64,000 bases of DNA from an uncultured Candidatus Saccharibacteria bacterium (lineage in GTDB: Bacteria; Patescibacteriota; Minisyncoccia; 2-02-FULL-40-12; GWA2-44-9): NCBI GenBank assembly GCA_964513645.1, contig CAZENF010000002.1, forward strand, positions 73,409 through 137,408, given 5' to 3'. The notes beneath the pieces were generated by a model. It did no database searches. It was not told the DNA's origin and saw only the letters and a list, made by a program, of their open reading frames with translations. Both the position numbers and the translations under genes were made by a program. Shown here in pieces: positions 1 through 51,268 of this stretch (the first letter of the stretch is position 1; every line of letters starts with the position of its first letter).

Positions 1-570
1 CATCATTTTTAACAATTCTTCCAGAACAACTGGGATTTCTGATATACCGGAATCATCACTAAAATGTTCTTTATTATGTTCGACCACGATCTTTGCTTCT
101 AGTTTATTTCTAAAAATCTTACTATCACTTATGGTTACATCCGGGTCATTATCAGAGAATATAGCCACAATCTTATTTTTAACACTCGTTTTCACTCTTG
201 TATAATCAAGGGGTGTTTCCAGCCATTCCTTGGCAATATCCCTTTCTTTCTTAGTGACAAGATTAGGCAAATGAAAGAATCCGGCAACGAAGATAGCCCC
301 ACCAACCATAGTTTCAGTTGGAAGATTTTCTAAATATCTCATTATAGTCTGGCAACCTATACTATGGCCGACAAAATATGTTTTCTCGTTTGGTTTTTTA
401 ACTTCTTTAGCAAGGAATTCAACCCAAGACTTAATTGTAGGTTCATCAGTATTAGGCATGGCCGGTACAGACGTTTTTATACCTCTAGATTTTAGTTCTT
501 GTTCAAGCCATACCAACCAAAGATTTTTGGGTGAGCCTGACCAACCGTGAATTACAAATACTCTTTCCAA
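1..570 (-). CDS. Partial (3'-truncated by window start) alpha/beta serine hydrolase, RBBP9/YdeN-like
   Basis: Not in the ORF track because there is no stop in the window. Own translation of the minus strand from TTG (complement of 568-570): (M)ERVFVIHGWSGSPKNLWLVWLEQELKSRGIKTSVPAMPNTDEP...YFVGHSIGCQTIMRYL... This shows the VxVIHGWxGS and GHSxG nucleophile-elbow motifs typical of PF06821-type serine hydrolases. No in-frame ATG lies upstream before a stop, so the start is probably TTG. Confidence 0.55.
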   Translation of the reverse strand, partial: MERVFVIHGWSGSPKNLWLVWLEQELKSRGIKTSVPAMPNTDEPTIKSWVEFLAKEVKKPNEKTYFVGHSIGCQTIMRYLENLPTETMVGGAIFVAGFFHLPNLVTKKERDIAKEWLETPLDYTRVKTSVKNKIVAIFSDNDPDVTISDSKIFRNKLEAKIVVEHNKEHFSDDSGISEIPVVLEELLKMM

Positions 571-715
571 TGTTTTTATTTTATAAAATCCCGCGTAGGC
601 TTCAGTCTATGAAGGGACTTGCGCAGGCCGACTGGGCCGAGCACGAAGCAAAATTTCAGCAGAAATTTATGCTGTGCCCTGAATGGGCTGAAGCCGAGAG
701 CGGGATTTTAAGAAA

Positions 716-3700
716 CTATTTTGTAACTCCGATCCAAATCTTTTTCTGGGGCGCAAGCTCAAATTCTTTTTCAATGTCGTATTTTTTGTTCGCTGGGCCG
801 GACTCGAATTTTTCAAGCAAGACATCTTTCTTTATTTCTTCCGTCCATTGTTCAACCGCTTCGATTATATCTTTGTCTTCCGAATGCCAGTGACCAAGGA
901 CTTTCTCGTCTAAACGGTATTTGGCCTCTTTGCGCATATCCTGAAGCTGGCGCATCAACTCACGAGCATAACCTTCGTGGATGAGAGCTTTATCCAAAAC
1001 TGTATCAAAAGTTATTCCTGATTCCTGTTTGGCATCATAGGTCAGGCCCTTAACATTGAGTTCTTCTTTAACCAACGATTCGATATCTTTGCTGAACTTC
1101 GAAGTTCGTTTGGTAATTGCCGAACGCAAAGGTTGGCGAACCTTTAATTGTTTTTCCTTTCGTACGGCCAAACCAGAAGCGATGACATTTCTGGCTTCTT
1201 CCATTTCTTTTTCAAGTTTTACGTCAATAAGTTTTTTATCTGCTTTGGGCCAGTCTTCGAGATGAACCGATGTCTTGCTTTTTAAATTGTGAAATATCTC
1301 TTCAGAGACAAAAGGTGTAAAAGGAGCGATTAGCTTGGCCGTTTCGAGGATCAAAAATTTAAGCAACCCGAGAGCTTCTTTTCTTTTTCTCGAACGTCTT
1401 AACCACCAGTTAGAGAGGTCCTCGACTGTAAATTTTTCTATGGCTCGAGTAGCCGTCGTCGGGTCGTATTTATCAAGAGCGGTTGTTACTTCGGCAATCA
1501 GAACATTTAAACGGGAGATTATCCATTTATCAAGAAGGTTGGATGTTTTGGATGTATGGGTAAAATTCTTCGAACCTTCTCCGTATAGTTCATAAAATCT
1601 AACACAATTCTCAAGAGTCGAGATAAAACCTTTAAGTTTGGCTTCGACATCTTTCATCGCAAAAAGTTTATACTCCCCTGGCTGATTAAGGGTATAAAAA
1701 TACCAGCGGGCTGCATCGGCCCCGACTTTATCCATTACTTCAAAAGGTGAAACAACGTTGCCTTTGGATTTAGACATCTTCTTGCCTTTGTCATCGAGAA
1801 CATGACCAAGGGACATTACGTTCTTATACGACGATCCTTTGCCTAAAAGAGTTGAGATAGCCAAAAGGGTATAGAACCAGCCCCGGGTCTGGTCAACCGC
1901 CTCGACTATGAAATCCGCCGGGAACTGCTCCTCAAACATCTTCTTGTTTTCAAAAGGCCAATGCCACTGGGCATAAGGCATTGCACCGGAATCGAACCAG
2001 ACATCTATTAGATCCGCGATCTTTTTCATGGACGCCCCGCACTCATCACATTTGAGAGAAACGCTGTCGATGTAGGGTCGGTGAAGATCAAGCTCGCCTA
2101 TCTCGTTCCTTGGAATTTTCCGCCATTTCATTTCACCGCAAAAAGCAACTCCAGGATAATTATCCTTCCTGGCATTATCTTCTATCTCCCGCCCGGTCAT
2201 TCCTTTTCCCATGCATGTTAAAATCCACAACGGATCACCGTGACTGACGATCAGGATATTTTTACCGGAATATTTATTTTCCATTTCCTGCATAAAATCG
2301 GACATTCTCGTGCGAACATCGTTCCAGCTTTCACCAGTCACATGCGCCTTAAAATCAATCGTCCTTCTCAAATCTTCAACTGAACAAACCTTATGCGGCA
2401 AGCCGTCACAACTGCCATGACTTATCTCTCTTAATCTTTCGTCGGAAGTGACCTTAAGATGCAGGGTTTTAGAAACTATTTCCGCCGTCTCGGCAGTTCT
2501 CAAGAAAGGAGAGCTGAAAATAAGGTCGATGTCATAATTATTCTTTATCTTCTGGGCATTTCGCTCGGCCTGTTTTTCTCCTTCTTTGGTCAGGTGGTAT
2601 TTATCCAATTTCAGATCGGAACTGATTATCATTTTGCCAGCTTCGTCACGGGTAGTGTAACCGTGGCGCAGGACTATATACCTATTGTTCTTGACAGGGT
2701 CCGAAGCACTAAGTTTTTCCATTTCTTCGACCGAACCGACAACCTTAACATCTCCGCACTTCTGACATTTCCAGGCCGGTAAAGGCGTGCCCCAATAGCG
2801 TTCGCGAGAAAAAGCCCAATCCTTGCCCTCGGCCAACCATTGGCCGAAACGTCCTTCTTTTATATTTTCCGGTACCCAGTTTATTTTCTGATTGTTGGCC
2901 ATGATTTCTTTGTTGACCGCCGACATTTTAATGAACCAGGAATTTTTGGCGTAATACAAAAGCGGCGAATCACAGCGCCAGCAGAAAGGATAATCGTGCT
3001 CATACTCTTCTTCTTTGAAAAGGAGGTTATTTTTATTCAGATACTCGATTATCTTCGAGGTCGTTTTTTCTTCGGTCGGTTTGTCTTTGCTTTTTACCAG
3101 CATGCCGTCGAGATCCTGTCCGACCCCGGTAAACCTGCCCTGCTCATCAACCGTGTGAACTTTTGGCAGACCTAATTTAGTCCCGAGAACATAATCTTCT
3201 TCTCCATACATCACAGCGGTATGAACCACTCCCGTGCCGTCTTCGGTCGAAACAAAACCTGCTTCATAAACCTGGTATGAAGTATTTGACTTGAGCTCTT
3301 TGATATCGAAAAGCGGTTCATAAATTAAACCGGCGAGATCTTTGCCTTTAAATTCTCCAACGACCTCGTAATCACTGCCGAGAACTTTTTGGATGAGATC
3401 TTTGGCGATAACTAAATTTTCTGAAAATTTTCTGACCAGAACATAATCTATGTTTTTGCCGACTGCCAAGGCAACATTGCCGGGTAAAGTCCAAGGCGTG
3501 GTTGTCCAGGCGAGAATATAATCCCCTCTTTTCACATGTGAATTCCCGGTTTTAACTTTGAATTTTATGTAAACAGATTTTTCTTTTACTTTTTTGTAAC
3601 CCTGGGCCACCTCATGAGATGACAAGGATGTTCCGCAACGGACACAAAAAGGCACAACCTTGTGGGCCTGATAAAGAAGTTTTTTGTCCCAGATCTGGCG

Positions 3701-4168
3701 GATGATATGCCAAACGCTTTCTATATAGTTATTCTCATAGGTTATGTATGGATGGTCGAGGTCAAGCCAAAAACCCATTTTCCTGGTCATGTCTTCCCAT
3801 TCGGTCTTATATTTCCAGACACTCGCTTTAGCCTTCTTGTTGAATTTTCCTATTCCGTAATCTTCGATATCTTTCTTTTTCTTAAAACCAAGTTCTTTTT
3901 CTATTTCTATTTCGACGGGTAAGCCGTGCGTATCCCAACCGGCCTTACGCAAAACAAAAAAGCCCTGCATGGTCTTATAGCGACAGATAAGGTCCTTGAA
4001 AGCGCGAGCTAAAAGATGGTGGATGCCCGGCCGACCGTTGGCAGTCGGTGGTCCTTCAAAAAAAACGAACCTTTTGCCTTTCTTCCTGTTCTCTAATGAT
4101 TTTTGAAAAGTATCGTTATTGCGCCAAAATTCGAGTATTTTATGCTCTGTTCCTTTAAAATCGTACAT
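716..4168 (-). CDS. ileS: Isoleucine--tRNA ligase, type-2 (eukaryote/archaea-like), with a histidine-phosphatase-like insertion
   Basis: HIGH-type motif PGIHHLLARA, KMSKSKGN, a CP1 editing domain, and the type-2 signatures SRERYWGTPLP, C-x2-C, DLHRPYID and DVWFDSG. The track ORF extends to 4237, but the conserved N-terminus MYDFKGTEHKILEFW begins at the ATG 4166-4168. The upstream 69 nt is read-through of a hairpin element that re-creates an in-frame ATG at 4235-4237. Confidence 0.9.
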   Translation of the reverse strand: MYDFKGTEHKILEFWRNNDTFQKSLENRKKGKRFVFFEGPPTANGRPGIHHLLARAFKDLICRYKTMQGFFVLRKAGWDTHGLPVEIEIEKELGFKKKKDIEDYGIGKFNKKAKASVWKYKTEWEDMTRKMGFWLDLDHPYITYENNYIESVWHIIRQIWDKKLLYQAHKVVPFCVRCGTSLSSHEVAQGYKKVKEKSVYIKFKVKTGNSHVKRGDYILAWTTTPWTLPGNVALAVGKNIDYVLVRKFSENLVIAKDLIQKVLGSDYEVVGEFKGKDLAGLIYEPLFDIKELKSNTSYQVYEAGFVSTEDGTGVVHTAVMYGEEDYVLGTKLGLPKVHTVDEQGRFTGVGQDLDGMLVKSKDKPTEEKTTSKIIEYLNKNNLLFKEEEYEHDYPFCWRCDSPLLYYAKNSWFIKMSAVNKEIMANNQKINWVPENIKEGRFGQWLAEGKDWAFSRERYWGTPLPAWKCQKCGDVKVVGSVEEMEKLSASDPVKNNRYIVLRHGYTTRDEAGKMIISSDLKLDKYHLTKEGEKQAERNAQKIKNNYDIDLIFSSPFLRTAETAEIVSKTLHLKVTSDERLREISHGSCDGLPHKVCSVEDLRRTIDFKAHVTGESWNDVRTRMSDFMQEMENKYSGKNILIVSHGDPLWILTCMGKGMTGREIEDNARKDNYPGVAFCGEMKWRKIPRNEIGELDLHRPYIDSVSLKCDECGASMKKIADLIDVWFDSGAMPYAQWHWPFENKKMFEEQFPADFIVEAVDQTRGWFYTLLAISTLLGKGSSYKNVMSLGHVLDDKGKKMSKSKGNVVSPFEVMDKVGADAARWYFYTLNQPGEYKLFAMKDVEAKLKGFISTLENCVRFYELYGEGSKNFTHTSKTSNLLDKWIISRLNVLIAEVTTALDKYDPTTATRAIEKFTVEDLSNWWLRRSRKRKEALGLLKFLILETAKLIAPFTPFVSEEIFHNLKSKTSVHLEDWPKADKKLIDVKLEKEMEEARNVIASGLAVRKEKQLKVRQPLRSAITKRTSKFSKDIESLVKEELNVKGLTYDAKQESGITFDTVLDKALIHEGYARELMRQLQDMRKEAKYRLDEKVLGHWHSEDKDIIEAVEQWTEEIKKDVLLEKFESGPANKKYDIEKEFELAPQKKIWIGVTK

Positions 4169-4287
4169 CCCGTTAGAAGTAGCCCGCCCGAGGTCATTGA
4201 CCGCGTAAGCGCGGGCGAGACTTCTAACGGGATACATCCAATAATTATAAATTATCCAGAGGAAAATTCAACTAAAACCTGGACTAT

Positions 4288-5961
4288 TTACATCTTTTTT
4301 GGCGCCGAGATCCCCATCAGAGAAAGGCATTCGCCAATAACAATAGCTATCGCCGAACATAAAGCTACTCTGGCCTTTTCTATTTTTTTGTCATCCCCGC
4401 CTGCTCGCCTCGCTGAAGCATCGGCGGAGCGGACCGGCGAAGCAGGATTTACAACTCTATGTTTCTCATAAAAATTATGGAACTCCGAAGCCAGTTCAAA
4501 GGCATATTGAGCCAAGCGGTGGGCCTGATAGTTAAGAGCTATTTCTTCTATCAATTCCGGGAACTTTGACATTTTCCGCATCAACCCAAATTCTTCTTTT
4601 TCTTTCAAACCCTCGAACACAGAAGGGTCATTTTTGGGTCTAAGTTCAGTAAGGTTTAATTTTCCAAAAATACTGTTAAGCCGGGCGTTAGCATACTGAA
4701 TGTAATAGACTGGGTTCTTTTTCGATTCTTCCTTGGCCAAGTCAACATCAAATTCCATATGAGTATTGAGATCCTTGACCAGAAAAAAATACCGGACAGC
4801 ATCCTTGCCAACCTCTTTAAAAAGTTCATCCAAAAGAACGAACTCCCCTTTTCTTTTGGACATCTTTTGTTTTTCTCCTCCGGCTTTCAAGGAAACCAGC
4901 TGGTGGAGAAGTATCTCAAGTTTGCCGTCTTCGTAGCCCAAGGCTCTGACTCCGGCCTTTAAGCGGTGTACATCGCCGTGATGGTCGGTTCCCCAAATAT
5001 TTATCGCTTTTCCGAAACCACGAATAAATTTATTCCTGGTATAGGAAATGTCGGCCATAAGGTACGAGTAGGATTTGTCGCTTTTGACCAATACCGCATC
5101 GCGTTCACCTGAATCATCTATCTTTAGCCATTCCGCACCTTCTTTTTCATAAACATGCTCGCCTTTTTTGAGCATCTTTAAAGTGTTATCGATTTCGCCC
5201 GAGTCATATAATTTTTTCTCGGAGAACCAGGTATCAAAATCTATATTAAGTTTCGACAAAGAAGCTTTGGCGGAATCGATCATTTTTTTCAATGCAAACT
5301 CGCGGCAAACAGATGTCAGTTCGTCGAAATTCTCTATGTCTTTGACCAAACCCTTATCATCCATCTCTTTGGCGACATCGATGATATATTCTCCCTGGTA
5401 AAGATTGTCAGGAAAATCTATGGTTTTTCCTTTTAAGCGAAGGTAGCGGCGGGCAACTGATTCACCCAATAGCTTAACCTGGTTCCCGGCATCATTGATG
5501 TAATATTCTTTTGTTATCTCGTAGCCGTATTTTTTAAAGATTGCGGCCAGAGTATCACCGAAAGCTGCCGCCCGGATGTTAGCAACCGTTAAGGGACCGG
5601 TGGGGTTGGCAGAAACAAATTCAAGATTTATGCTTAATTTTTTATTTTCTCCTGAACCATAATTTTCTTTTTGTTCCAGTATCTTAACCAGTTCTTGCCT
5701 TAAAAAATCTTCAGATAAGTAAAAATTAACAAAACCGTCGGCGGGTTCTATTTTGCTGAAATATTTGCTTAATTCTTTATTTTCTAAAAATTCTTCAGCT
5801 AAACGACCAGCTACATCCTTAGGATGCTGTTTCTCTTTTTTAGCCAATACAAAAGCAAGATTTATGGAATAATCCCCCATTTCATTGTTTGGCGGGGTCA
5901 GAACATCAAAATCAACACCAGGATAGAGTTCTTTAATCTTGTTTTCTATCCACATTTTCAT
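4288..5961 (-). CDS. argS: Arginine--tRNA ligase
   Basis: Arg_tRNA_synt_N-like N-terminus, core NPTGPL motif and a C-terminal DALR-type anticodon-binding end (…LSLMGISAPKKM). KMSKRKG is present. The HIGH position reads TVAN instead of H-x-G-H. A C-terminal in-frame insert lies at 4391-4446. Confidence 0.9.
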   Translation of the reverse strand: MKMWIENKIKELYPGVDFDVLTPPNNEMGDYSINLAFVLAKKEKQHPKDVAGRLAEEFLENKELSKYFSKIEPADGFVNFYLSEDFLRQELVKILEQKENYGSGENKKLSINLEFVSANPTGPLTVANIRAAAFGDTLAAIFKKYGYEITKEYYINDAGNQVKLLGESVARRYLRLKGKTIDFPDNLYQGEYIIDVAKEMDDKGLVKDIENFDELTSVCREFALKKMIDSAKASLSKLNIDFDTWFSEKKLYDSGEIDNTLKMLKKGEHVYEKEGAEWLKIDDSGERDAVLVKSDKSYSYLMADISYTRNKFIRGFGKAINIWGTDHHGDVHRLKAGVRALGYEDGKLEILLHQLVSLKAGGEKQKMSKRKGEFVLLDELFKEVGKDAVRYFFLVKDLNTHMEFDVDLAKEESKKNPVYYIQYANARLNSIFGKLNLTELRPKNDPSVFEGLKEKEEFGLMRKMSKFPELIEEIALNYQAHRLAQYAFELASEFHNFYEKHRVVNPASPVRSADASARRAGGDDKKIEKARVALCSAIAIVIGECLSLMGISAPKKM

Positions 5962-6011: not shown

Positions 6012-6710
6012 TTAAGGATTTTTACCTATCTTCTTTTTGGTGTTGCCTATTTCTAAATCTCCTAATCTTTCGACGACCACATCCAAACAAATGATACTGC
6101 AGCTTTCAATTTTTAACTTTTTGATTAACTTTAATTGGATCTCCTTTAAAACTTTTTCATCGGGTTTGTTCAGCTTAGAAAACAATCTTGAAACAGCATT
6201 GGTAACCTTTTTTCGATACTGAAGATCGTAGCATCCGGCAACAAATATCTTTGCTTCCGAATCATTTTCCTGATCTTCATCAGTAAAAAAATGATAATCT
6301 CCAGTAAAATAGATCACTACCAGCCGACCAAGAATATCAACGATGGCAAACTCAGCGGCTAAACCTCGAGCCGTATCCTTGTCCTCAAGGTCGATTTTCA
6401 TCAACCTGGCCAAATCATCTCTCAAAATCGTGCAATGAACATCATAAGAAGAGAAGGTGGTTGCCCAACTCGACACTATCCTTCTCACATTTCTTACACC
6501 TTCAGCAATATCTCCCGAAGAACCACCTGTAACTATTGCCGCGAAGTTGGGGCTCCGATATAAACCGGCCATTTCATCTCCGCCGGCTATCAAAAAATTA
6601 GTTCCATTAACCTTGACGCAACAAATGAAGTTTTTCTTCAATCTTGCCCGAACATTATTTTTTTTATTCTCAAATTCGTTGACCAGACTAAGCCCTTGGT
6701 TTTTAGACAT
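6012..6710 (-). CDS. Proteasome-like (Ntn-hydrolase fold) subunit lacking catalytic Thr; putative alpha-type or inactive partner
   Basis: NFICCVKVNGTNFLIAGGDE…GSSGDIAEGVRNVRR matches the proteasome-subunit pattern (G.T.VGIK..DGVVLA.D…G..AD), but CC replaces the Thr1 position. The start is chosen at the internal M (MSKNQGL), giving an 8 nt overlap with the upstream gene. The track ORF extends to 6785. Confidence 0.45.
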   Translation of the reverse strand: MSKNQGLSLVNEFENKKNNVRARLKKNFICCVKVNGTNFLIAGGDEMAGLYRSPNFAAIVTGGSSGDIAEGVRNVRRIVSSWATTFSSYDVHCTILRDDLARLMKIDLEDKDTARGLAAEFAIVDILGRLVVIYFTGDYHFFTDEDQENDSEAKIFVAGCYDLQYRKKVTNAVSRLFSKLNKPDEKVLKEIQLKLIKKLKIESCSIICLDVVVERLGDLEIGNTKKKIGKNP

Positions 6711-7476
6711 TGTCGCCTCGTTTCCCTTTAAAAAGTTTCGCTCGAATTGTTTCGAGGGTCTTATTTTCGACATTTTTAAAACCACCCGTAACGGTGATGG
6801 TTGCCACCGAAGGTAAGACTGAAGATAAAGGAGAAACTCCGCTCTCCCATTTTCCAGATTTATAGAGAGCTTCTAAGGCGATGAAAATCGCACTTTTGAG
6901 ATTGAGGGATCTACTATTAATTTCCTGCCTATAGTCTTCCATGACTTGGAGAGCTTCAAAAGTACCCGAACCGACAGCACTATATTCTCTCTCTTCTTTA
7001 CAACCATCTTCCCAAATATCAAAAATTTGATAAGTCCCAAAAAAATTAAGACCACAAATGATCATCTCGGTCATCAAGGGTATTCCATAGTAACAGTAGT
7101 CGCGGAGAAGATCTGCGACATAATTTGCCTGGCCTTCGATGGTCAAAGGCACACCTGATCTCTCCATAAACGTAAGGTTTATTTGTTGAAGAATGGATTT
7201 TATGTACTGCGCATCGCTGACCGAACCGGCACAGCCAACCCCGGTAAACATAGCGACCTGATCGATTTTGACCGTTTCATCGCTCATAATTTTATGGCCA
7301 AAAGACGTTCTCCTGTCTCCGGCGATTAAAACGCCATCTTCAAATTTAAGAGCAATGATGGTTGTCCCCTTTTTTCGGTCCATTTCCTTGGACCCGGAAC
7401 TACCCTTAAATCTCTGAATTGATTTTTGGGGCAAGGAAGATTTAAGGATCTGATCTATAATTCTTTCCCTATTCAC
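6703..7476 (-). CDS. 20S proteasome beta-type subunit with a 36-aa propeptide and intact catalytic residues
   Basis: …KKG|TTIIALKFEDGVLIAGDRRTSFGHKIMSDETVK: cleavage after G would expose Thr1, with Asp17 and Lys33 at exactly canonical spacing. A downstream GSG motif (AVGSGTFEA) is present. Length 257 aa. Confidence 0.7.
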   Translation of the reverse strand: MNRERIIDQILKSSLPQKSIQRFKGSSGSKEMDRKKGTTIIALKFEDGVLIAGDRRTSFGHKIMSDETVKIDQVAMFTGVGCAGSVSDAQYIKSILQQINLTFMERSGVPLTIEGQANYVADLLRDYCYYGIPLMTEMIICGLNFFGTYQIFDIWEDGCKEEREYSAVGSGTFEALQVMEDYRQEINSRSLNLKSAIFIALEALYKSGKWESGVSPLSSVLPSVATITVTGGFKNVENKTLETIRAKLFKGKRGDNV

Positions 7477-7594
7477 AGGTTTTCCTTTTCAATGAAACTG
7501 GTAGATAGATTAACATTAACGCCCTCAATGTCAAAGCCAAGATAGTTGCTCCAGGTCTATTGAAAAGTTGCACGTTTAGCCTCATAATATAAGT

Positions 7595-8629
7595 ATGAAT
7601 TCACAAGAATATGACAAGGTAATAATTGAGGCGGTAAAAAAGGTTGCTGACTCGGTTGTCAGCATAGTTATCTCAAAAAACCTGCCCAAAATTAAAAGCA
7701 TGTACCAGGCTCCGTTCATGAGCCCTTTTATGTTCGGCGAGGCAGAAGGCGGAACGGAAAAAGTAAAGGTTGGCGGCGGCTCTGGATTTGTCGTCCACCC
7801 GGAAGGTCTTATCCTGACCAACAAGCACGTGGTTTTCGATACTGATGCGGAATACACTGTGCTTACGACCGATGGAAAAGAATATGTAGCCAAAGTCCTG
7901 TCTCGTGACCCGATAAACGATATTGCCGTATTAAAAATAGCCGCAACCGGAATGCCGGCAGTCCGCCTTGGAAACTCGGTTAAACTTGAACTCGGCCAAA
8001 CTGTAGTCGCCATCGGCAATGCTCTGGGTCTTTTTTCAAACACCGTCTCAAAGGGCATTGTTTCCGGATTATCAAGAAAAATTTCCGCTTCCCTCGGCAC
8101 CGGCGGACAGATGGAACACTTGCGCGGTGTCATCCAGACGGATGTAGCGATCAACCAGGGCAATTCAGGCGGTCCGCTGATTAACGTCGAGGGTGAAGTT
8201 GTCGGTATTAATACCGCGATAATTTTCGGCGCCCAGAACATCGGCTTTTCAATTCCCATCAACTGGGCCAAGGAGGATCTGGAAGATATCATCAAGCATG
8301 GCCGAATCATCAAGCCTTTCATCGGTCTTCAGTATGTAATGCTTGGCAAAGAACTTCAGAAAAAATATTCCCTGCCCGTCGACTACGGCGCTTTGGTTGT
8401 TCGAGACCATGTGCCTGGTTCGTTGGCAGTTGTTCCCGATTCCCCTGCCGCTAAAGCCGGTATCCGGGAAAACGACATCATCACTGCTTTAAACAATGAG
8501 AAATTGACCGAAGAGAAAGACCTTCGGGATATGATACAGAAATGCGGCGTCGACGATGAAATAGACCTCACGGTTCTGCGCAAGAACGAAACTCTCAATC
8601 TCAAAACCAAACTGGTCGAGCGTAAATAA
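7595..8629 (+). CDS. HtrA/DegP-family (S1C) trypsin-like serine protease with C-terminal PDZ domain
   Basis: The TNKHVV (His), D, and GNSGGPL (Ser) catalytic-triad context, followed by a PDZ-like region (…GALVVRDHVPGSLAVVPDSPAAKAGIRENDII…). Confidence 0.85.
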   Translation: MNSQEYDKVIIEAVKKVADSVVSIVISKNLPKIKSMYQAPFMSPFMFGEAEGGTEKVKVGGGSGFVVHPEGLILTNKHVVFDTDAEYTVLTTDGKEYVAKVLSRDPINDIAVLKIAATGMPAVRLGNSVKLELGQTVVAIGNALGLFSNTVSKGIVSGLSRKISASLGTGGQMEHLRGVIQTDVAINQGNSGGPLINVEGEVVGINTAIIFGAQNIGFSIPINWAKEDLEDIIKHGRIIKPFIGLQYVMLGKELQKKYSLPVDYGALVVRDHVPGSLAVVPDSPAAKAGIRENDIITALNNEKLTEEKDLRDMIQKCGVDDEIDLTVLRKNETLNLKTKLVERK

Positions 8630-8635
8630 ACGCTC

Positions 8636-9079
8636 ATGAGCGACTACGCCTCAAACCCAAAAGCCAATTTTGACTATGACATCCTCGAGACAATTGAGGC
8701 CGGGATTGTTTTAGAAGGACACGAAGTAAAATCTGTCAAAACCGGCAAGGCCTCGATAAAAGGTTCCTACGTTAAAATATTAAACGAAGAAGCATATCTT
8801 ATCGGCGCAACCATCTCCCCTTACCAGCCGGCCAATACTCCTCAAAACTACGATCCCCAGCGTTCGAGAAAATTATTATTATCCCGCAAAGAAATATCCG
8901 AACTTATCGGCACTTCGCAAGCCAAAGGCACGACCTTGGTACCCCTAAAACTCTACGGCAAAAAAGGTCTTGTAAAACTCCTCGTCGGTATCGCCCGCGG
9001 CAAGAAAAAATACGACAAACGCGAGACCATCAAGAAAAAAGACATCGCCCGCTCAAAACAGAGAGGACTTGAGAATTAA
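8636..9079 (+). CDS. smpB: SsrA-binding protein SmpB
   Basis: Typical SmpB length (147 aa) and sequence pattern (…IEAGIVLEGHEVKS…YLIGATISPY…). Its cognate tmRNA lies immediately downstream. Confidence 0.9.
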   Translation: MSDYASNPKANFDYDILETIEAGIVLEGHEVKSVKTGKASIKGSYVKILNEEAYLIGATISPYQPANTPQNYDPQRSRKLLLSRKEISELIGTSQAKGTTLVPLKLYGKKGLVKLLVGIARGKKKYDKRETIKKKDIARSKQRGLEN

Positions 9080-9105: not shown

Positions 9106-9455
9106 GGGGATGACGGGATTCGACAAGGTTCGTTCCAAATTATCTGCAAGTAATGGATGGGTATCACCATTTAAATCATTATCCAAATTCATAATTGCCA
9201 AAAACAATTATTCATCTGCTTTAGCTTTTGCTTAACAGACGTTCTCTCATTGATTCTCGCTATTTGAAGAGGGCGCCATCAGCGGGATACTGTTTGCGGG
9301 GTCTTGGTGAGTTCTAAGCCGTAGATAGGAAAATTAATTAGAATTCTGGCTTGGCATTTTTGCTAATTTCAAAGCCGAGCAATAAAAAATTAGCTAAACT
9401 TGTAGACTATAATTTGATAAAACTTTGCACGGCGGTTCAACTCTGCCCATCTCCA
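9106..9455 (+). ncRNA. ssrA: tmRNA (ssrA), with predicted tag peptide (A)KNNYSSALAFA
   Basis: The 5' end GGGGATGACGGGATTCGACAAGG is an acceptor/tRNA-like start. An internal ORF GCC AAA AAC AAT TAT TCA TCT GCT TTA GCT TTT GCT TAA runs 9197-9235. The 3' end has a T-arm GGCGG-TTCAACT-CTGCC, then CATCTCC pairing with the 5' GGGGATG, and discriminator A at 9455. No CCA is encoded. The gene sits directly after smpB. Confidence 0.7.
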
Positions 9456-9465
9456 CTTTTGAAAA

Positions 9466-12526: not shown

Positions 12527-12979
12527 TTAACGAGTAACAGATATAGGCGTGGTGATCTCGGCTCCAGGAGCGTCGACAGTTATTCTGCCTCCGCCTGCCG
12601 CTTGCATTATCCTGTATCCGGTATCGGCCGCCGTTCCTGTTGAGGGGTCCATGACCATGGTTGAAACATAGGTCGGGACGATGCATGAAGCAAGGTCAAT
12701 GTTGCCGGCTCCTGAACCGACTGCGGTCAAGGCAGCAGGCAATGTGACGGTTACAGCACCGCAGGTTGAACTCCAGACTCCTTTGTTATCAACCATTCTT
12801 TGCCAAACACCATTTAAAATAGTGTTGACGTTGGAAACTCTCTGGGTATCGCGGGCTTGGGCAAACTGTCTGGCCGGGTTCAAAGCAACGATAACCACGG
12901 CTGCCAAGATGGCGATAATACCGATAACGACCAAAATTTCTATAAGGGTGAATCCTGACTGTTTATTGTAATTTTTCAT
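12527..12979 (-). CDS. Type IV major pilin (PilA-like), copy 1
   Basis: N-terminal class III signal QSGFTLIEILVVIGIIAILAAVV (G|FTLIE prepilin cleavage and N-methylation motif). Confidence 0.8.
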   Translation of the reverse strand: MKNYNKQSGFTLIEILVVIGIIAILAAVVIVALNPARQFAQARDTQRVSNVNTILNGVWQRMVDNKGVWSSTCGAVTVTLPAALTAVGSGAGNIDLASCIVPTYVSTMVMDPSTGTAADTGYRIMQAAGGGRITVDAPGAEITTPISVTR

Positions 12980-13151: not shown

Positions 13152-13604
13152 TTACCTGGTAACAGTTATCGGGGTGGTAATTTCAGCACTCGGTGCATCA
13201 ACGGTAATTCTACCGCCTCCGGCCGCTTGCATAATACGGTAGCCGGTGTTAGCCGCCGTTCCTGTTGAGGGGTCCATGACCATGGTTGAAACATAGGTCG
13301 GGACGATGCATGAAGCAAGGTCAATGTTGCCGGCTCCTGAACCGACTGCGGTCAAGGCAGCAGGCAATGTGACGGTTACAGCACCGCAGGTTGAACTCCA
13401 GACTCCTTTGTTATCAACCATTCTTTGCCAAACACCATTTAAAATAGTGTTGACGTTGGAAACTCTCTGGGTATCGCGGGCTTGGGCAAACTGTCTGGCC
13501 GGGTTCAAAGCAACGATAACCACGGCTGCCAAGATGGCGATAATACCGATAACGACCAAAATTTCTATAAGGGTGAATCCTGACTGTTTATTGTAATTTT
13601 TCAT
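13152..13604 (-). CDS. Type IV major pilin, copy 2 (tandem duplicate)
   Basis: Identical to copy 1 except for 3 aa (D/N, G/S, S/T). The 625 bp duplicated unit includes the upstream region. Confidence 0.8.
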   Translation of the reverse strand: MKNYNKQSGFTLIEILVVIGIIAILAAVVIVALNPARQFAQARDTQRVSNVNTILNGVWQRMVDNKGVWSSTCGAVTVTLPAALTAVGSGAGNIDLASCIVPTYVSTMVMDPSTGTAANTGYRIMQAAGGGRITVDAPSAEITTPITVTR

Positions 13605-15816: not shown

Positions 15817-17579
15817 TAAGGTGAAAGTGTTGCTCTGTATTCCTGCCAACCGTTAGAAATGGTTACGGGTACAGACATGTCCTGATATCCTGACTTGTGA
15901 AGAGTTAGGGTGTAATTGCCGTTGCTTAAGCCGTTGAAAAATGTCTGGCCATTAGGCAGACAAGTTGAACTGAAATTAACTGTTAGGTCGCTGATAGACG
16001 GCGTAATCGCTTGGTTATCGGTTCTAAGAATAACTTGGTATCGAAGATACCTGTTTCCATTATGAATCGCGTTCATCTGGACATCGCTGACCGTGTAGTA
16101 TGTAGAAGCGGTCCCGTCAGGCCCGACGAAATTCCAGGTTGCATTGTCATTATTTGTTGCGAGCTGGATCTTCAAGCTTGTCTGGGCAGGTTGAGAGAAG
16201 GTAAAAGATAAATTATAAAAATTCGTACTGGAAGTGCCGAAATCTATCGTGTTGGAGTTCAGCCATTCATCGCTTGAAGACGCATATTTGCCGTTTATAA
16301 GCTTGAGCGTTAACTGACCGACCGGACTATCGGCTTCGAGGTTAGTACTCTTGGCACTGTATTTACCGGCTGACCAGTCCGTATCAGTAGTCAAGTTCCG
16401 TCCGGTATATTTCTGGCTTGAAAATCCGCTTTTAGCCAAGGTGGCCGAAACGTCATTTATCCTTTGTCCGGAAGCGTCTTGAGCAGTAACCGAAAGAGAA
16501 GATTGGTTTTTAGGTTCCAGCATCCAGGCAACACTGAAATTACTGTTGGGATTGACAGTGAACGGCGACAAGAAAGAGGTCCCAGCTAAGTCGTAGTTTG
16601 CATCGGTATTCTGCAAAGTATAATTATCCCACTCGAGGTTTGTAGATCTATTTCCACTGACATCCGTCGTGTCACTGACTGAATACTTGAGAACGTTGGG
16701 TCCGGAACCGATCAATTTTGCCCCCTGTTCGGTGAAGTGAATAGCCGGTACAGCCTGACAGAATTTATTTTTGGTCGTAAGTGTCTGGGTGCTTAGTCGG
16801 TCAATGGCGAGAGTTAACAGTGTAACCTGATGACTGACGACTGTTGCATGCGGTTTCACCGGATTAGGGTTTGGCGGATCACCCGGTTTATAAGTCTTGT
16901 CTGTTGAATAGCCGGCCTTAGTGATGGTCACCTGATAGTTAAGAGAACTCGTGGCGATATCAACCAGCTGGAGCTGGCCATTGTTATTCGTAACGTCAGT
17001 AATGTTTATCGCCGGATTAACTGCATTGTTTACGACAGTCACGTTGGCTTGTGCTATCGGGTTGCCTGAAGCATCGATCGCATTCACAAAAAGATCGCCG
17101 TTTTTGGATGAACCTTCAAGATTGGCCGGACCGACATAAGTCGTAGTCGTTATGGGTTTAAAATTCGGACAGTTCTGACAAGTTAACGTAAGCTCAACTA
17201 ATTTGTAGTCGGCCGGAGCAATATCGTTCGGGACTCCGCCCAAAACTCCGTCGAAAGGATCGTCTATATTCCTGACCGTAGTATTTAAAACGAACTTAAA
17301 ACCGGATGTATTTATATTTTGCTGACCTGGAATTATTCCTGCCGGCGCTCCTCCTTGAATACCGATATCCTGATACTTGATGTTTCTTATAACTTCGAGC
17401 TGATTAGAAATAACCGTCAGACCGGTCGCACTCAACTGGGAAGCAACAGTAATATCTATTACACTTTGATAAGCCGAGTATATCGCCGAGGATACGATCG
17501 CAAATATTGCAATCGCAACCAGAGCCTCGACGAGGGTAAATCCTTTCTGACCATTTTTAATATTTAAATATTTGAACAT
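15816..17579 (-). CDS. Large minor pilin with prepilin-type N-terminus
   Basis: KGFTLVEALVAIAIFAIV motif, 587 aa, with a beta-rich Thr/Asn-rich ectodomain. Confidence 0.6.
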   Translation of the reverse strand: MFKYLNIKNGQKGFTLVEALVAIAIFAIVSSAIYSAYQSVIDITVASQLSATGLTVISNQLEVIRNIKYQDIGIQGGAPAGIIPGQQNINTSGFKFVLNTTVRNIDDPFDGVLGGVPNDIAPADYKLVELTLTCQNCPNFKPITTTTYVGPANLEGSSKNGDLFVNAIDASGNPIAQANVTVVNNAVNPAINITDVTNNNGQLQLVDIATSSLNYQVTITKAGYSTDKTYKPGDPPNPNPVKPHATVVSHQVTLLTLAIDRLSTQTLTTKNKFCQAVPAIHFTEQGAKLIGSGPNVLKYSVSDTTDVSGNRSTNLEWDNYTLQNTDANYDLAGTSFLSPFTVNPNSNFSVAWMLEPKNQSSLSVTAQDASGQRINDVSATLAKSGFSSQKYTGRNLTTDTDWSAGKYSAKSTNLEADSPVGQLTLKLINGKYASSSDEWLNSNTIDFGTSSTNFYNLSFTFSQPAQTSLKIQLATNNDNATWNFVGPDGTASTYYTVSDVQMNAIHNGNRYLRYQVILRTDNQAITPSISDLTVNFSSTCLPNGQTFFNGLSNGNYTLTLHKSGYQDMSVPVTISNGWQEYRATLSP

Positions 17580-18662: not shown

Positions 18663-20411
18663 TTATTCATTAACAACGCGTAAGATCTCCTCGAGGGTCG
18701 TATAGCCGGCTAAAGCTTTTTTGAAACCGTCCTCAAGAAGAGGTATCATTCCGTTCTTAACCGCGATCTTTTTTATCTCACCGGCATCAGCCCGCCTCAT
18801 TATCGCTTCCCTGATAAAATCATTGACCTCGAGTATTTCGTAAATTCCCATCCGACTGAAATAGCCGGTATCTCCGCACTCCTGACAACCTTTGCCGTAA
18901 TAAAAATCGCGGTGATTATCTATCAGATCCGACGGGAGAATACTTTTTAAGTTCTCAAGCTCTGCATCGGTAAGTTTTTTCTTGGTCTTACAATGGGGAC
19001 AGATCATCCTGACCAGACGCTGACCAATGGCAATATTTATCGTTGAGGCCACCAGGAACGGCTCGATCCCCATATCGAGCAGTCTGGGCAAGGTAGTTGC
19101 AGAATCATTGGTGTGAATGGTTGAAAGAAGTTTGTGTCCGGTCAAAGCGGCATTAACCGCTATTGAGGCGGTCTCCTGGTCACGTATCTCTCCGACCATG
19201 ATAACGTTCGGGTCCTGCCTAAGTATCGAACGTAGTCCAGCCGCAAAAGTAAGTCCGGTTCTGGTATTGACCTGGATTTGGTCAACACCTTCGAGAGAAT
19301 ATTCTATCGGATCTTCCACTGTGATAACCGATACCTCACGGGTATTAACTTCCTTAAGTATCGTGTAAAGCGTAGTCGTTTTACCGGAACCGGTCGGACC
19401 GGTAGCCAAGATCATTCCGTGTGGACGCTGGGTAGATTTTCTGATTTTCAGTTTATCTTCCCCCGTCAAAGCCAGGTCATCGAGTTTTGATATCTGGGTC
19501 TGCTCAGCCAAAAGACGAAGAACAGAATTTTCTCCGTAATAAGTCGGAATTATCGAGACCCGGACATCAAATTGGCTTGGCGGATTTGCGATTGCGATCT
19601 TAAAACGTCCGTCCTGGGCCGCTTGGTGTTCATCCGTTCTCATTCCGCCCAGAACTTTTATCCTGGTTATAATACCCGAGTGTATCTCTTTGGGAAAACT
19701 GAAAACATCGTGAAGAATCCCGTCTATTCTCAAGCGTGCAATTAGATGTTCTTCAAAAGGTTCGAGGTGTATGTCTGAAGCACGAGCCATGAAAGAATAT
19801 TCCATCATACTGTCAACCAAAGCAATTATAGAAACTTCGGCCGGCGGAGCGGTGAGCATTTTATCTATTTTGGCTTTTATCCGCTTAGGCGCTTCGAGCG
19901 GAATTACAGTTTTAGGCGAAGTTGAAGCTGGTTTACGGGCAGTAATGTCCACTGGGACAGATTCTTTTTTAACGATCGGTATTTTTTCTAAAGGTATTTC
20001 CCGGTTTTTACTCTTTAGGATTTCCTCTATCTTGGTCACTATCTCGTCGGTATTGGTCAGGGCTTTAACAAGATAAAAATTCGCTCCGACCTTCAGACTC
20101 TTTTCCATCGCTTCGGGCTGGTCGAGGTTGAAAAGGATCATTATCGGCAAAGCGACCTTGTCATAATTTTTTCTTAATTTTTCAATAAGCTCAAAACCAT
20201 CAACCTCACCGGCCAAGGGCAGGTCAAGAAGTATCAACAGAGGGTGTTCTTTGGCAATTTTTTCCGAAACCTCCTTGCCGTCATATAAAGTTACGGCTTC
20301 ATATCCGACATTGGATATCTTCTCGGCCAAAAGTTCAGCCATGAAGATGTTATCTTCGACTATTAGTATTTTGCCAAGATTTATTGCGGTTTTAATTTTT
20401 GAAACAGCCAT
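18663..20411 (-). CDS. pilB: Response-regulator receiver domain fused to PilB/GspE-family pilus assembly ATPase
   Basis: The N-terminus is a CheY-like receiver (ILIVEDN…LILLDLPLAGEVDGFELIEKL…LVKA). It is followed by Walker A GPTGSGKTTTLY, an Asp box (MVGEIRD), a His box, and the tetracysteine motif CPHC…CQEC. Confidence 0.85.
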   Translation of the reverse strand: MAVSKIKTAINLGKILIVEDNIFMAELLAEKISNVGYEAVTLYDGKEVSEKIAKEHPLLILLDLPLAGEVDGFELIEKLRKNYDKVALPIMILFNLDQPEAMEKSLKVGANFYLVKALTNTDEIVTKIEEILKSKNREIPLEKIPIVKKESVPVDITARKPASTSPKTVIPLEAPKRIKAKIDKMLTAPPAEVSIIALVDSMMEYSFMARASDIHLEPFEEHLIARLRIDGILHDVFSFPKEIHSGIITRIKVLGGMRTDEHQAAQDGRFKIAIANPPSQFDVRVSIIPTYYGENSVLRLLAEQTQISKLDDLALTGEDKLKIRKSTQRPHGMILATGPTGSGKTTTLYTILKEVNTREVSVITVEDPIEYSLEGVDQIQVNTRTGLTFAAGLRSILRQDPNVIMVGEIRDQETASIAVNAALTGHKLLSTIHTNDSATTLPRLLDMGIEPFLVASTINIAIGQRLVRMICPHCKTKKKLTDAELENLKSILPSDLIDNHRDFYYGKGCQECGDTGYFSRMGIYEILEVNDFIREAIMRRADAGEIKKIAVKNGMIPLLEDGFKKALAGYTTLEEILRVVNE

Positions 20412-20419
20412 TTTTAATT

Positions 20420-20827
20420 TTAATTAGAGACGGGTTGAAGTTCTTTTTTTACCCTCTCGATAACTTTGTCGAGGTCTTCTGTTTTTCTAAGATGGCCGAG
20501 CGCTCCGATGTCTTTGGCGAATTTTTCATCCAGAGGTTGGTCGGCCGTATTGGCCTCGCCGTAATTCGTTAAAAAAAGAACCTTGAGTCCTGCCGTTTCC
20601 GGGTCAGATTTTATCTTGGACAAAGTCTCAATGCCGTTCATCACCGGCATTTGAACATCGAGAAGGATCATGTCCGGTTTTATCGCTTTTGCCTTTTCAA
20701 ATGCAACCTGACCGTTTTCGGCTTCCTCAACCGCAAAACCGGCTACTTCGAGCTTTGTTCTCAAGAGCAAACGCATATCACCGTCGTCGTCAACTTCCAA
20801 AACAATAAATTTACCATTCTTAGGCAT
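20420..20827 (-). CDS. Stand-alone CheY-like response regulator receiver
   Basis: FIVLEVDDDGD…MILLDVQMPVMNGIETL…LKVLFLTNYG. The start is chosen at the MPKNGKF methionine. The track ORF extends to 20875. Confidence 0.7.
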   Translation of the reverse strand: MPKNGKFIVLEVDDDGDMRLLLRTKLEVAGFAVEEAENGQVAFEKAKAIKPDMILLDVQMPVMNGIETLSKIKSDPETAGLKVLFLTNYGEANTADQPLDEKFAKDIGALGHLRKTEDLDKVIERVKKELQPVSN

Positions 20828-39909: not shown

Positions 39910-39956
39910 TCGATTTTTAAGCTACAATAATATCTATAATACCACCTATTCAGCTA

Positions 39957-51209: not shown

Positions 51210-51268
51210 TTGCGTTAATTATACTACGAAACTCGACATGATTAATCCTTGAAGTACTGACGGCTCGT

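Follow-up and report, generated by a model that had tools for sequence, protein, structure and literature searches.

The window analysed here, a 64,000-nucleotide stretch of contig CAZENF010000002.1 (assembly GCA_964513645.1, recorded as an uncultured Candidatus Saccharibacteria bacterium), carries near its beginning the gene ileS, which encodes a type-2 isoleucyl-tRNA synthetase (IleRS2). Nested within the catalytic core of this synthetase is a histidine phosphatase domain, which is the subject of this study. The gene lies between argS, its upstream neighbour, and a downstream gene for a YdeN/RBBP9-type serine hydrolase; the coordinates of these and all other features are collected in Table 1. 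In the following, we describe the nested domain and its host, trace the two through the Candidate Phyla Radiation (CPR), and discuss what their association may be for.

A histidine phosphatase nested in IleRS

In Pfam searches with the whole protein, the synthetase family tRNA-synt_1 covers residues 33-513, is then interrupted by a His_Phos_1 domain and resumes behind it, followed by Anticodon_1 and DUF5915. The His_Phos_1 match extends over residues 521-683 (E 5.3e-34, 118 bits against a gathering threshold of 21.7), and the 195-residue segment on its own gives E 6.5e-35 (118-121 bits over both runs). This agrees with an earlier note, made by reading the letters alone, which had assigned residues 518-712 (nucleotides 2102..2686) to branch 1 of the histidine phosphatases (PF00300) from four motifs, among them RHG and the motif of the second catalytic histidine; all four are present at this place.

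An alignment with the IleRS2 structure 8C8W defines the point of insertion. As residues 510 and 715 of the window protein pair with residues 478 and 485 of 8C8W, about 200 residues have been inserted into a loop of about six, and the same loop measures 6-10 residues in insert-less CPR IleRS. The junctions read LSAS/DPVKNN and NEIGEL/DLHRP, and the domain falls, as the earlier note had it, between the landmarks WKCQKCG and DLHRPYID/CDECG. A CxxC pair stands on either side of the insert; by analogy with the Thermus thermophilus enzyme, we take the two pairs to form a putative zinc knuckle, one half each, within the connective-peptide region that follows the editing domain. This position is referred to as site A below.

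The segment is neither a pseudogene nor an intein, again as the note had maintained. The reading frame runs through without interruption, and exactly this junction recurs in more than 300 independent proteins of many samples, which also speaks against an artefact of assembly or gene calling. Pfam reports no Hint or intein family, the junctions offer no Cys, Ser or Thr nucleophile and no His-Asn pair, and the insert is kept as a conserved enzyme domain. On one metagenomic contig (ERZ1286166 contig_675 in ENA; locus L001), the phosphatase-bearing ileS is spread over three open reading frames (ORFs) and thyA is split too, most likely through frameshift errors of an error-prone long-read assembly rather than because the gene is genuinely split.

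The insert has the alpha/beta fold of the histidine phosphatase superfamily and is confidently predicted to be folded, with predicted local distance difference test scores (pLDDT) mostly between 86 and 96 in a full-length AlphaFold model (AF2; mean pLDDT 86.9, predicted template-modelling score 0.77) and of 88.8 when it is modelled alone. The phosphate-binding arginines, the nucleophilic and second catalytic histidines and the probable proton donor are all in place (Table 1). Conservation was assessed over 171 full-length homologues with the insert at site A, in which S576 is likewise invariant and E604, E636 and R644 are conserved at 98-99%. Mean identity among them amounts to 39% for the insert, against 54-64% for the IleRS core. 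Since the catalytic residues are kept at 98-100% while the rest of the insert drifts, selection appears to act on catalysis.

No named subfamily accommodates the domain. It stays below the curated cutoffs for PspA (78.4 bits against 350), CobC (76.9 against 162.9) and SixA (39.7 against 74.5). The same holds for dPGM enzymes, in which the substrate residues that follow the catalytic Glu are E-R-H-Y: the window domain reads E-I-S-H-G at the motif position, scores 92 against a cutoff of 225 with dPGM_arch, and falls far short with the other dPGM models. At the level of sequence and predicted structure, these data show a real, folded histidine phosphatase domain that has kept its catalytic residues and is of the PhoE/iPSP/CobC type.

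Integrity of the host synthetase

The surrounding protein has the hallmarks of a complete IleRS2. It scores 875.7 bits with the NCBIfam model TIGR00392 (ileS; cutoff 621.4), its best matches in the PDB are all IleRS2 (8C8W, E 4.5e-247), and it shows the type-2 organisation at its C-terminus, with PF08264 (Anticodon_1) at residues 903-1040, PF19302 (DUF5915) at 998-1152 and no treble-clef Zn domain at the end. The CP1 editing-domain segment is present and aligns to 8C8W, on which the modelled IleRS body superposes with a Foldseek template-modelling score of 0.82. Going by the N-termini of homologues, the actual start is probably M24 (nucleotide 4168). This is the only copy of ileS seen in the window.

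The earlier note had described the flanking IleRS motifs as intact, which is true of WFDSG, KMSKS and the editing domain. The HIGH-type signature is present too, but in a non-canonical variant, PGIHH, with GxHH in place of HxGH. Among the 171 phosphatase-bearing relatives, about 80 have GxHH and about 85 HxGH. The arrangement also occurs in 8C8W, an engineered, mupirocin hyper-resistant IleRS2; it is natural in some IleRS2, including that of the window, and engineered in 8C8W. In IleRS2, the [A/G]XHH variant is reported to confer mupirocin hyper-resistance (bioRxiv 10.64898/2026.02.03.703510). The window protein does not belong to the acquired mupirocin-resistance enzymes MupA/MupB (823-829 bits against the exception-model cutoff of 1900). 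From the integrity of its motifs, we infer that it is an isoleucyl-tRNA synthetase that charges tRNA-Ile; the nested phosphatase is probably active, and it probably resides in a functional synthetase.

Distribution of the nested architecture

Searches for orthologues with the same insert found them widely in CPR genomes. A protein identical to that of the window is present in NCBI (P0121, on a 283-kb contig), and the more than 300 database proteins with the same insertion site come from Yanofsky-, Taylor- and Nealsonbacteria and other Paceibacteria. All of the best 120 full-length matches (56-73% identity) combine PF00133 with PF00300; their named sources are Candidatus Yanofskybacteria, Taylorbacteria and Paceibacterota, and fragments add Nealsonbacteria and others. 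When 1.84 billion representatives clustered at 50% identity were searched, a query spanning the junction matched 181 proteins at E <= 1e-30, most of them in a single stretch at about position 450-750 of proteins of about 1150 residues. The architecture is also encoded in at least 12 GTDB species genomes, which were scanned with alignment A2, alignment A1 (15 diverse fragments) being too divergent.

Outside the CPR, none of 68 type-2 ileS loci from other phyla has this phosphatase within 4 kb of ileS. In L041 (Ignavibacteriales) and L086 (Flammeovirga), tblastn gave longer matches that were considered as possible inserts of other domains; these consist of tRNA-synt_1 sequence only. Within the window, the paralogous class Ia synthetase gene valS serves as an internal control and is free of inserts, and no second copy of the phosphatase was found.

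Several metagenome-assembled genomes among the GTDB records, titled 'uncultured Gammaproteobacteria' or 'Candidatus Saccharibacteria' (L014, L017, L018 and L019) carry nested IleRS of the Paceibacteria type, and their titles probably mislabel the organisms.

A free-standing gene upstream of ileS

In sister lineages, the phosphatase also exists as a protein of its own, with a length of about 195 residues and about 40% identity to the insert. Its gene lies immediately upstream of an insert-less ileS (949-958 residues) in each of the first five cases examined, separated from it by 1-4 nucleotides or overlapping it in an ATGA. The usual order is argS - phosphatase - ileS - recO, and the pair persists where the upstream neighbour differs. 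The window lacks a free phosphatase gene between argS and ileS.

The same association emerges from a metagenome scan that was seeded with the phosphatase alone. Among its best 80 loci, the phosphatase is nested in IleRS in 57, and in a further six in which the gene is cut by the contig end; it stands alone directly upstream of ileS in 14 and, in the last three, alone but followed on the same strand by ileS at a distance of 1-2.3 kb. All of the 80 include ileS. As read from gene order, this linkage establishes the phosphatase as an obligate partner of IleRS; among the proteins seen here it has no other partner. In the lineage of the window, the partnership is hard-wired as a domain insertion.

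In a neighbour-joining tree of IleRS cores, computed without bootstrap, enzymes with an upstream phosphatase gene form at least four clades interleaved with nested ones, so the switch between the two states must have happened repeatedly. The corresponding tree of phosphatase domains is star-like, with clear clusters only for the stand-alone forms and for copies at site C (see below), and is compatible with change in either direction, from stand-alone to nested or the reverse. The two forms differ in their median isoelectric point, which is 9.6 for the stand-alone proteins (P0025-P0120, n=72) and 6.7 for the nested domains (n=285), and most stand-alone homologues have Asp at the position of the catalytic Glu E604.

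Further insertion sites and co-inserted enzymes

IleRS sequences from database records named Gracilibacteria, Peregrinibacteria and Peribacteria, labels that we adopt from these records, extend the picture considerably. Reading these sequences, we find the phosphatase at four positions. Besides site A, these are site A', directly behind the second CxxC; site C, with WFESG..PYA on one side and ADFIAEGxDQTRGW on the other; and site B, where the insert separates the catalytic/stem-contact region from the anticodon-binding helices. Three of them (A, A' and C) lie around the active-site motif WFDSG. Site B alone is occupied in 44 proteins, A/A' in 40, C and B together in nine, C in five, and A' and B together in two; three proteins (P0308, P0393 and P0396) contain three phosphatase copies each. 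Where no insert is present, the spacing at these loops is constant (67-74 and 32-36 residues). As the site-C copies cluster together in the domain tree, the copies are old and site-specific rather than recent duplicates.

The same loops accommodate other enzymes, each verified with Pfam: GNAT, DUF559, Ser_hydrolase, P-loop kinases and HAD phosphatases, in architectures found among P0308, P0316, P0373, P0381, P0383, P0345 and P0392-P0473. DUF559 also occurs within the CP1/editing region of P0467, and the nested GNAT domains have only weak and uninformative subfamily matches, to RimI, ElaA and NAA30. Very long Gracilibacteria proteins may include read-through into neighbouring genes, as UGA encodes Gly there; domains flanked by IleRS on both sides are unaffected by this.

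P0451 has no histidine phosphatase and instead carries two tandem HAD phosphatases at site C; that an unrelated phosphatase family takes the same position suggests that phosphatase chemistry itself has been selected. Nested P-loop kinases occur in P0452, P0467 and others, and P0452 combines a kinase and a histidine phosphatase in one protein. The best solved relative of these kinases is the kinase domain of Pnkp1, which belongs to a bacterial RNA-repair complex (4XRP; E 1e-5 for P0452, 7e-4 for P0467 and 8.7e-7 for a profile of five sequences), with which they share an aligned DDxR motif.

Genomic neighbourhood

The serine hydrolase gene downstream of ileS recurs in close relatives, directly in L090 and after one gene in L091. 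It was not found downstream of ileS in loci L001-L089; among the loci sampled, the closest relatives of the window alone have it. Given that a YdeN-type Ser_hydrolase domain is nested in the IleRS P0442, this gene is possibly a second IleRS-associated module.

Upstream, many Paceibacteria loci retain the smpB-argS-ileS neighbourhood. In the window, smpB is directly followed by the gene for tmRNA, whose tag peptide is AKNNYSSALAFA, and an ORF with a proteasome-subunit domain adjoins one for an HtrA-like trypsin/PDZ protease; the Yanofskybacteria relative L091 also has a proteasome-family gene in this position. Further along lies a type IV pilus cluster, with two pilin-like ORFs of 150 residues that have identical N_methyl scores and are likely tandem duplicates, a 587-residue N_methyl protein with Ig-like domains, and a T2SSE ATPase with an N-terminal response-regulator receiver domain. 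Lastly, a 728-residue protein has a T4SS pilin/TrbC-VirB2 domain at its C-terminus as its sole recognisable part; pilins are not usually of this length.

Table 1. Features of the window, with positions in nucleotides (aa, amino acid residues of the ileS product)
Feature	Position	Strand	Basis or remark
YdeN/RBBP9-type Ser_hydrolase gene, immediately downstream of ileS	1..573	(-)	PF06821 E 3.9e-24; 1UXO E 9e-28; cut by window edge
ileS ORF, type-2 isoleucyl-tRNA synthetase	716..4237	(-)	1173 aa, longest ORF, one uninterrupted frame
KMSKS motif, intact, aa 820-824	1766..1780	(-)	sequence reading
WFDSG motif of catalytic core, intact, aa 747-751	1985..1999	(-)	sequence reading
Second CxxC (C730-C733), downstream of insert	2039..2050	(-)	sequence reading; nearly invariant in relatives (alignment A3)
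Nested His_Phos_1 (branch-1 histidine phosphatase) domain, aa 518-712	2102..2686	(-)	Pfam
H666, second catalytic His (IVSHGD)	2240..2242	(-)	100% conserved
E604, probable proton donor (RLREI)	2426..2428	(-)	98% conserved among homologues with the domain nested
R580, second phosphate-binding Arg (SSPFLRT)	2498..2500	(-)	100% conserved
R524-H525, RHG motif (phosphate-binding Arg and nucleophilic His)	2663..2668	(-)	100% conserved
First CxxC (C491-C494), upstream of insertion point	2756..2767	(-)	sequence reading; nearly invariant in relatives (alignment A3)
Variant class I signature P-G-I-H-H, aa 70-74	4016..4030	(-)	sequence reading
argS, upstream neighbour of ileS	4288..5961	(-)	conserved argS-(phosphatase)-ileS synteny
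Proteasome-subunit domain ORF	6706..7488	(-)	PF00227, E 2.4e-28
HtrA-like trypsin/PDZ protease	7580..8626	(+)	
smpB	8636..9079	(+)	
tmRNA gene	9106..9458	(+)	Rfam, 129.8 bits
Type IV pilus cluster	12527..12979, 13152..13604, 15819..17579, 18666..20423	(-)	
valS, paralogous class Ia synthetase, insert-free	39921..42119	(+)	one colinear match to T. thermophilus ValRS
Protein with C-terminal T4SS pilin/TrbC-VirB2 domain	49035..51218	(-)	

Possible functions

The comparative pattern, i.e. a neighbouring gene, at least four nested sites, up to three copies per protein and replacement by a HAD phosphatase, argues strongly, as judged from genomes, for a joint function of phosphatase and IleRS. The earlier note had named a small molecule, a nucleotide and the tRNA 3' end as candidate substrates, and the context described above weakly narrows this choice.

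We tentatively favour the view that the nested phosphatase may be an IleRS-tethered phosphomonoesterase that heals phosphorylated tRNA ends. IleRS would then serve to hold out tRNA-Ile to the end-processing enzymes tethered to it, as on a platform, and the phosphatase would strip a terminal 2'- or 3'-phosphate off a damaged or toxin-modified tRNA end. Such phosphates remain after the action of ribonuclease toxins, once the 2',3'-cyclic phosphate has been opened, and the dephosphorylated tRNA would regain a free hydroxyl for repair or re-charging. The other half of end healing would, in relatives, fall to the Pnkp-like 5'-kinase that their IleRS carries as well.

What leads us to this view is, first, that the Pnkp-like kinase and the HAD companions mirror both end-healing activities of polynucleotide kinase-phosphatases. 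Second, the entrance of the active site, through which we expect the acceptor end to pass, as in class Ia synthetase-tRNA complexes generally, has three of the four sites beside it. Third, the stand-alone phosphatases are basic, with the median isoelectric point given above. Fourth, suitable damage is documented, both by toxins that cut tRNA-Ile, leaving a 2',3'-cyclic phosphate and a 5'-OH (PMC11724271, PMC9424206), and by toxins that cut tRNA acceptor ends (PMC11724271, PMC9424206, PMC9071432, cited jointly with the tRNA-Ile cutters).

Several points weigh against it. The closest structural relatives of the domain are phosphoserine, glucosyl-3-phosphoglycerate and alpha-ribazole phosphate phosphatases, enzymes of small molecules and not of nucleic acids, and we know of no histidine phosphatase that dephosphorylates RNA ends. 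The window protein itself has no P-loop kinase (P-loop and DxxR) by Pfam, the kinase being present only in some Gracilibacteria-type relatives, and its similarity to Pnkp1 is modest (32 bits), with BH3686, APS kinase and adenylate kinase scoring close behind. No RNA ligase turned up in the loci examined, in which no targeted search for one was made. Repair of tRNA would also leave the restriction to IleRS unexplained, and with tRNA processing as the common theme, the insertions of GNAT, Ser_hydrolase and DUF559 agree only loosely. A wider version would embrace these as well. In it, the essential IleRS of CPR bacteria would serve tRNA repair or defence as a platform built from modules, with embedded end-healing and other enzymes directed at tRNA or aminoacyl-tRNA (GNAT, Ser_hydrolase, a DUF559 nuclease fold), and damaged or toxin-modified tRNA-Ile would be mended on its own recharging enzyme. 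We regard this version as doubtful, but if true, it would represent a new class of translation-apparatus immunity built into an aminoacyl-tRNA synthetase.

A rather questionable, though still serious, contender is a small-molecule phosphatase on the nucleotide or adenylate side of the reaction, which would hydrolyse a phosphomonoester made or needed at the IleRS active site, such as AMP or a further nucleotide by-product. Local product clearing or nucleoside salvage could matter where nucleotides cannot be made, and both the position of sites A, A' and C around the active-site motif and the companions would suit it, since the HAD_2-type phosphatases of P0451 and the nucleotide-kinase-like P-loop domains could both act on AMP. 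Yet AMP is made by every aminoacyl-tRNA synthetase and only IleRS has the domain, the ValRS of the window being without it. Site B, moreover, lies in a distal linker before the anticodon-binding domain, and product clearance explains neither three copies per protein nor the insertion of GNAT, Ser_hydrolase and DUF559.

The companions also bring to mind defence. GNAT, Ser_hydrolase, kinase and phosphatases resemble a set of drug- and toxin-modifying enzymes, and the phosphatase might be a built-in module that inactivates an IleRS-directed inhibitor or reverses a toxin modification, e.g. phosphorylation of IleRS, on the target itself. HipA-type kinases phosphorylate aminoacyl-tRNA synthetases, and the GNAT enzymes MccE and RimL detoxify aminoacyl-adenylate mimics, both of which fit this idea. 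The GxHH signature of the window IleRS, with its link to mupirocin hyper-resistance in IleRS2, is a weak echo of it, and since roughly every second member of the family has GxHH, inhibitors of IleRS may have exerted selection; the association is not exclusive, however, given the nearly equal number of HxGH enzymes. As we know of no phosphorylated IleRS inhibitor, and as the protein phosphatases among the structural neighbours (SixA 14.9, PGAM5 14.4, Sts-2 13.8) score below the small-molecule group, we consider this explanation unlikely.

We judge it similarly improbable that the domain is an independent housekeeping phosphatase, acting for instance on phosphoserine or a glycolytic intermediate, that sits in one operon with ileS and has been inserted time and again into permissive loops of IleRS, the two having no functional connection. 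That the insert evolves faster than the IleRS core, and that these loops tolerate many unrelated domains, would be expected in this case. It is difficult to reconcile, though, with linkage to ileS in 80 of the 80 best loci and with a pair that is kept despite differing upstream neighbours. Nor does it account for up to three site-specific, anciently diverged copies in one IleRS, for the unrelated HAD phosphatase in the same place in one relative, or for a ValRS of the same fold and loops that is insert-free. The scores of the domain also fall short of every subfamily cutoff (dPGM_arch 92/225, PspA 78/350, CobC 77/163). A non-catalytic structural or tRNA-binding module, i.e. a pseudo-enzyme, is very unlikely in view of catalytic residues that are all conserved at 98-100% while the surface drifts, and a misassembly, chimeric gene call, pseudogene or intein can be set aside for practical purposes, considering the continuous frame, the recurrence of one junction in more than 300 proteins and at least 12 GTDB genomes, and the lack of intein features.

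Aminoacyl-tRNA synthetases are among the most studied enzymes, and each kind of accessory domain in them, whether for editing, for tRNA binding or, in eukaryotes, for signalling, has led to a field of research. No counterpart has been described for a catalytic phosphatase within such an enzyme, and the pattern points to an unrecognised step in tRNA-Ile or IleRS biology across a very large uncultivated branch of bacteria. A shared target of the co-inserted enzymes could reveal new chemistry of tRNA damage, repair or antibiotic defence. The sites also provide a natural map of IleRS loops that tolerate the insertion of whole domains, which is useful for engineering.

Comparison with known systems

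The earlier note had called the architecture unfamiliar. A literature search for phosphatases in or beside aminoacyl-tRNA synthetases and for insertions in CPR IleRS indeed found no description, and a 2026 survey with domain annotation of 96,219 IleRS sequences mentions neither phosphatase nor acetyltransferase nor CPR (bioRxiv 10.64898/2026.02.03.703510). The architecture is not rare, however: hundreds of such proteins have been public since the CPR genomes of 2015-16, labelled automatically as IleRS or 'hypothetical', or, for example, as 'isoleucyl-tRNA synthetase/phosphohistidine phosphatase SixA/...GNAT'. An IleRS with an extra enzyme domain has also been recorded before, in the curated NCBIfam family NF040702 (ileS_w_GNAT). 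The window protein is not a member (296 bits against a cutoff of 1999, no GNAT match in Pfam), and CPR relatives combine GNAT with the phosphatase. What is new is the recurrent, multi-site and multi-enzyme pattern.

As to its host, the window protein is colinear with IleRS2 of Priestia megaterium (8C8U/8C8V/8C8W) and T. thermophilus (1ILE) on both sides of the insert and shares their order of catalytic core, editing domain, zinc knuckles, anticodon-binding domain and type-2 C-terminal domains; it differs from 8C8W in having some 200 extra residues where the latter has about six (478-485). The phosphatase is 22-26% identical to the PhoE / iPSP1 (PspA) / GpgP / CobC group, below all curated subfamily cutoffs. 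Those enzymes are free-standing and metabolic, whereas this family is nested in, or adjoins, IleRS.

Histidine phosphatases occur in other fusions, too. In the RNase H/acid phosphatase (PRK07238, Mycobacterium tuberculosis Rv2228c type), the fusion is end-to-end and with another partner, and the window domain scores far below the cutoff of 326; MutT1 (Nudix and histidine phosphatase, 9CXX) is likewise fused end-to-end, unlike the nested insertion described here. Pnkp, as in T4 Pnkp or Pnkp1 of the Pnkp1-Rnl-Hen1 complex (4XRP), resembles the IleRS of some relatives in uniting a phosphatase with a P-loop kinase. The window protein has no kinase, and its phosphatase comes from a different superfamily, as the T4 Pnkp phosphatase belongs to the HAD superfamily, like those of P0451.

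Finally, nested insertion as such is familiar among class Ia synthetases, the leucine-specific domain of LeuRS being one instance. Other lineage-specific insertions, the CP1 editing domain and the INS subdomain in ARD2 of IleRS2, are likewise nested in surface loops (bioRxiv 10.64898/2026.02.03.703510). The insertions of CP1, INS and LeuRS bind tRNA or hydrolyse mis-acylated products, and in this they differ from the domain described here, as none of them is a phosphatase.

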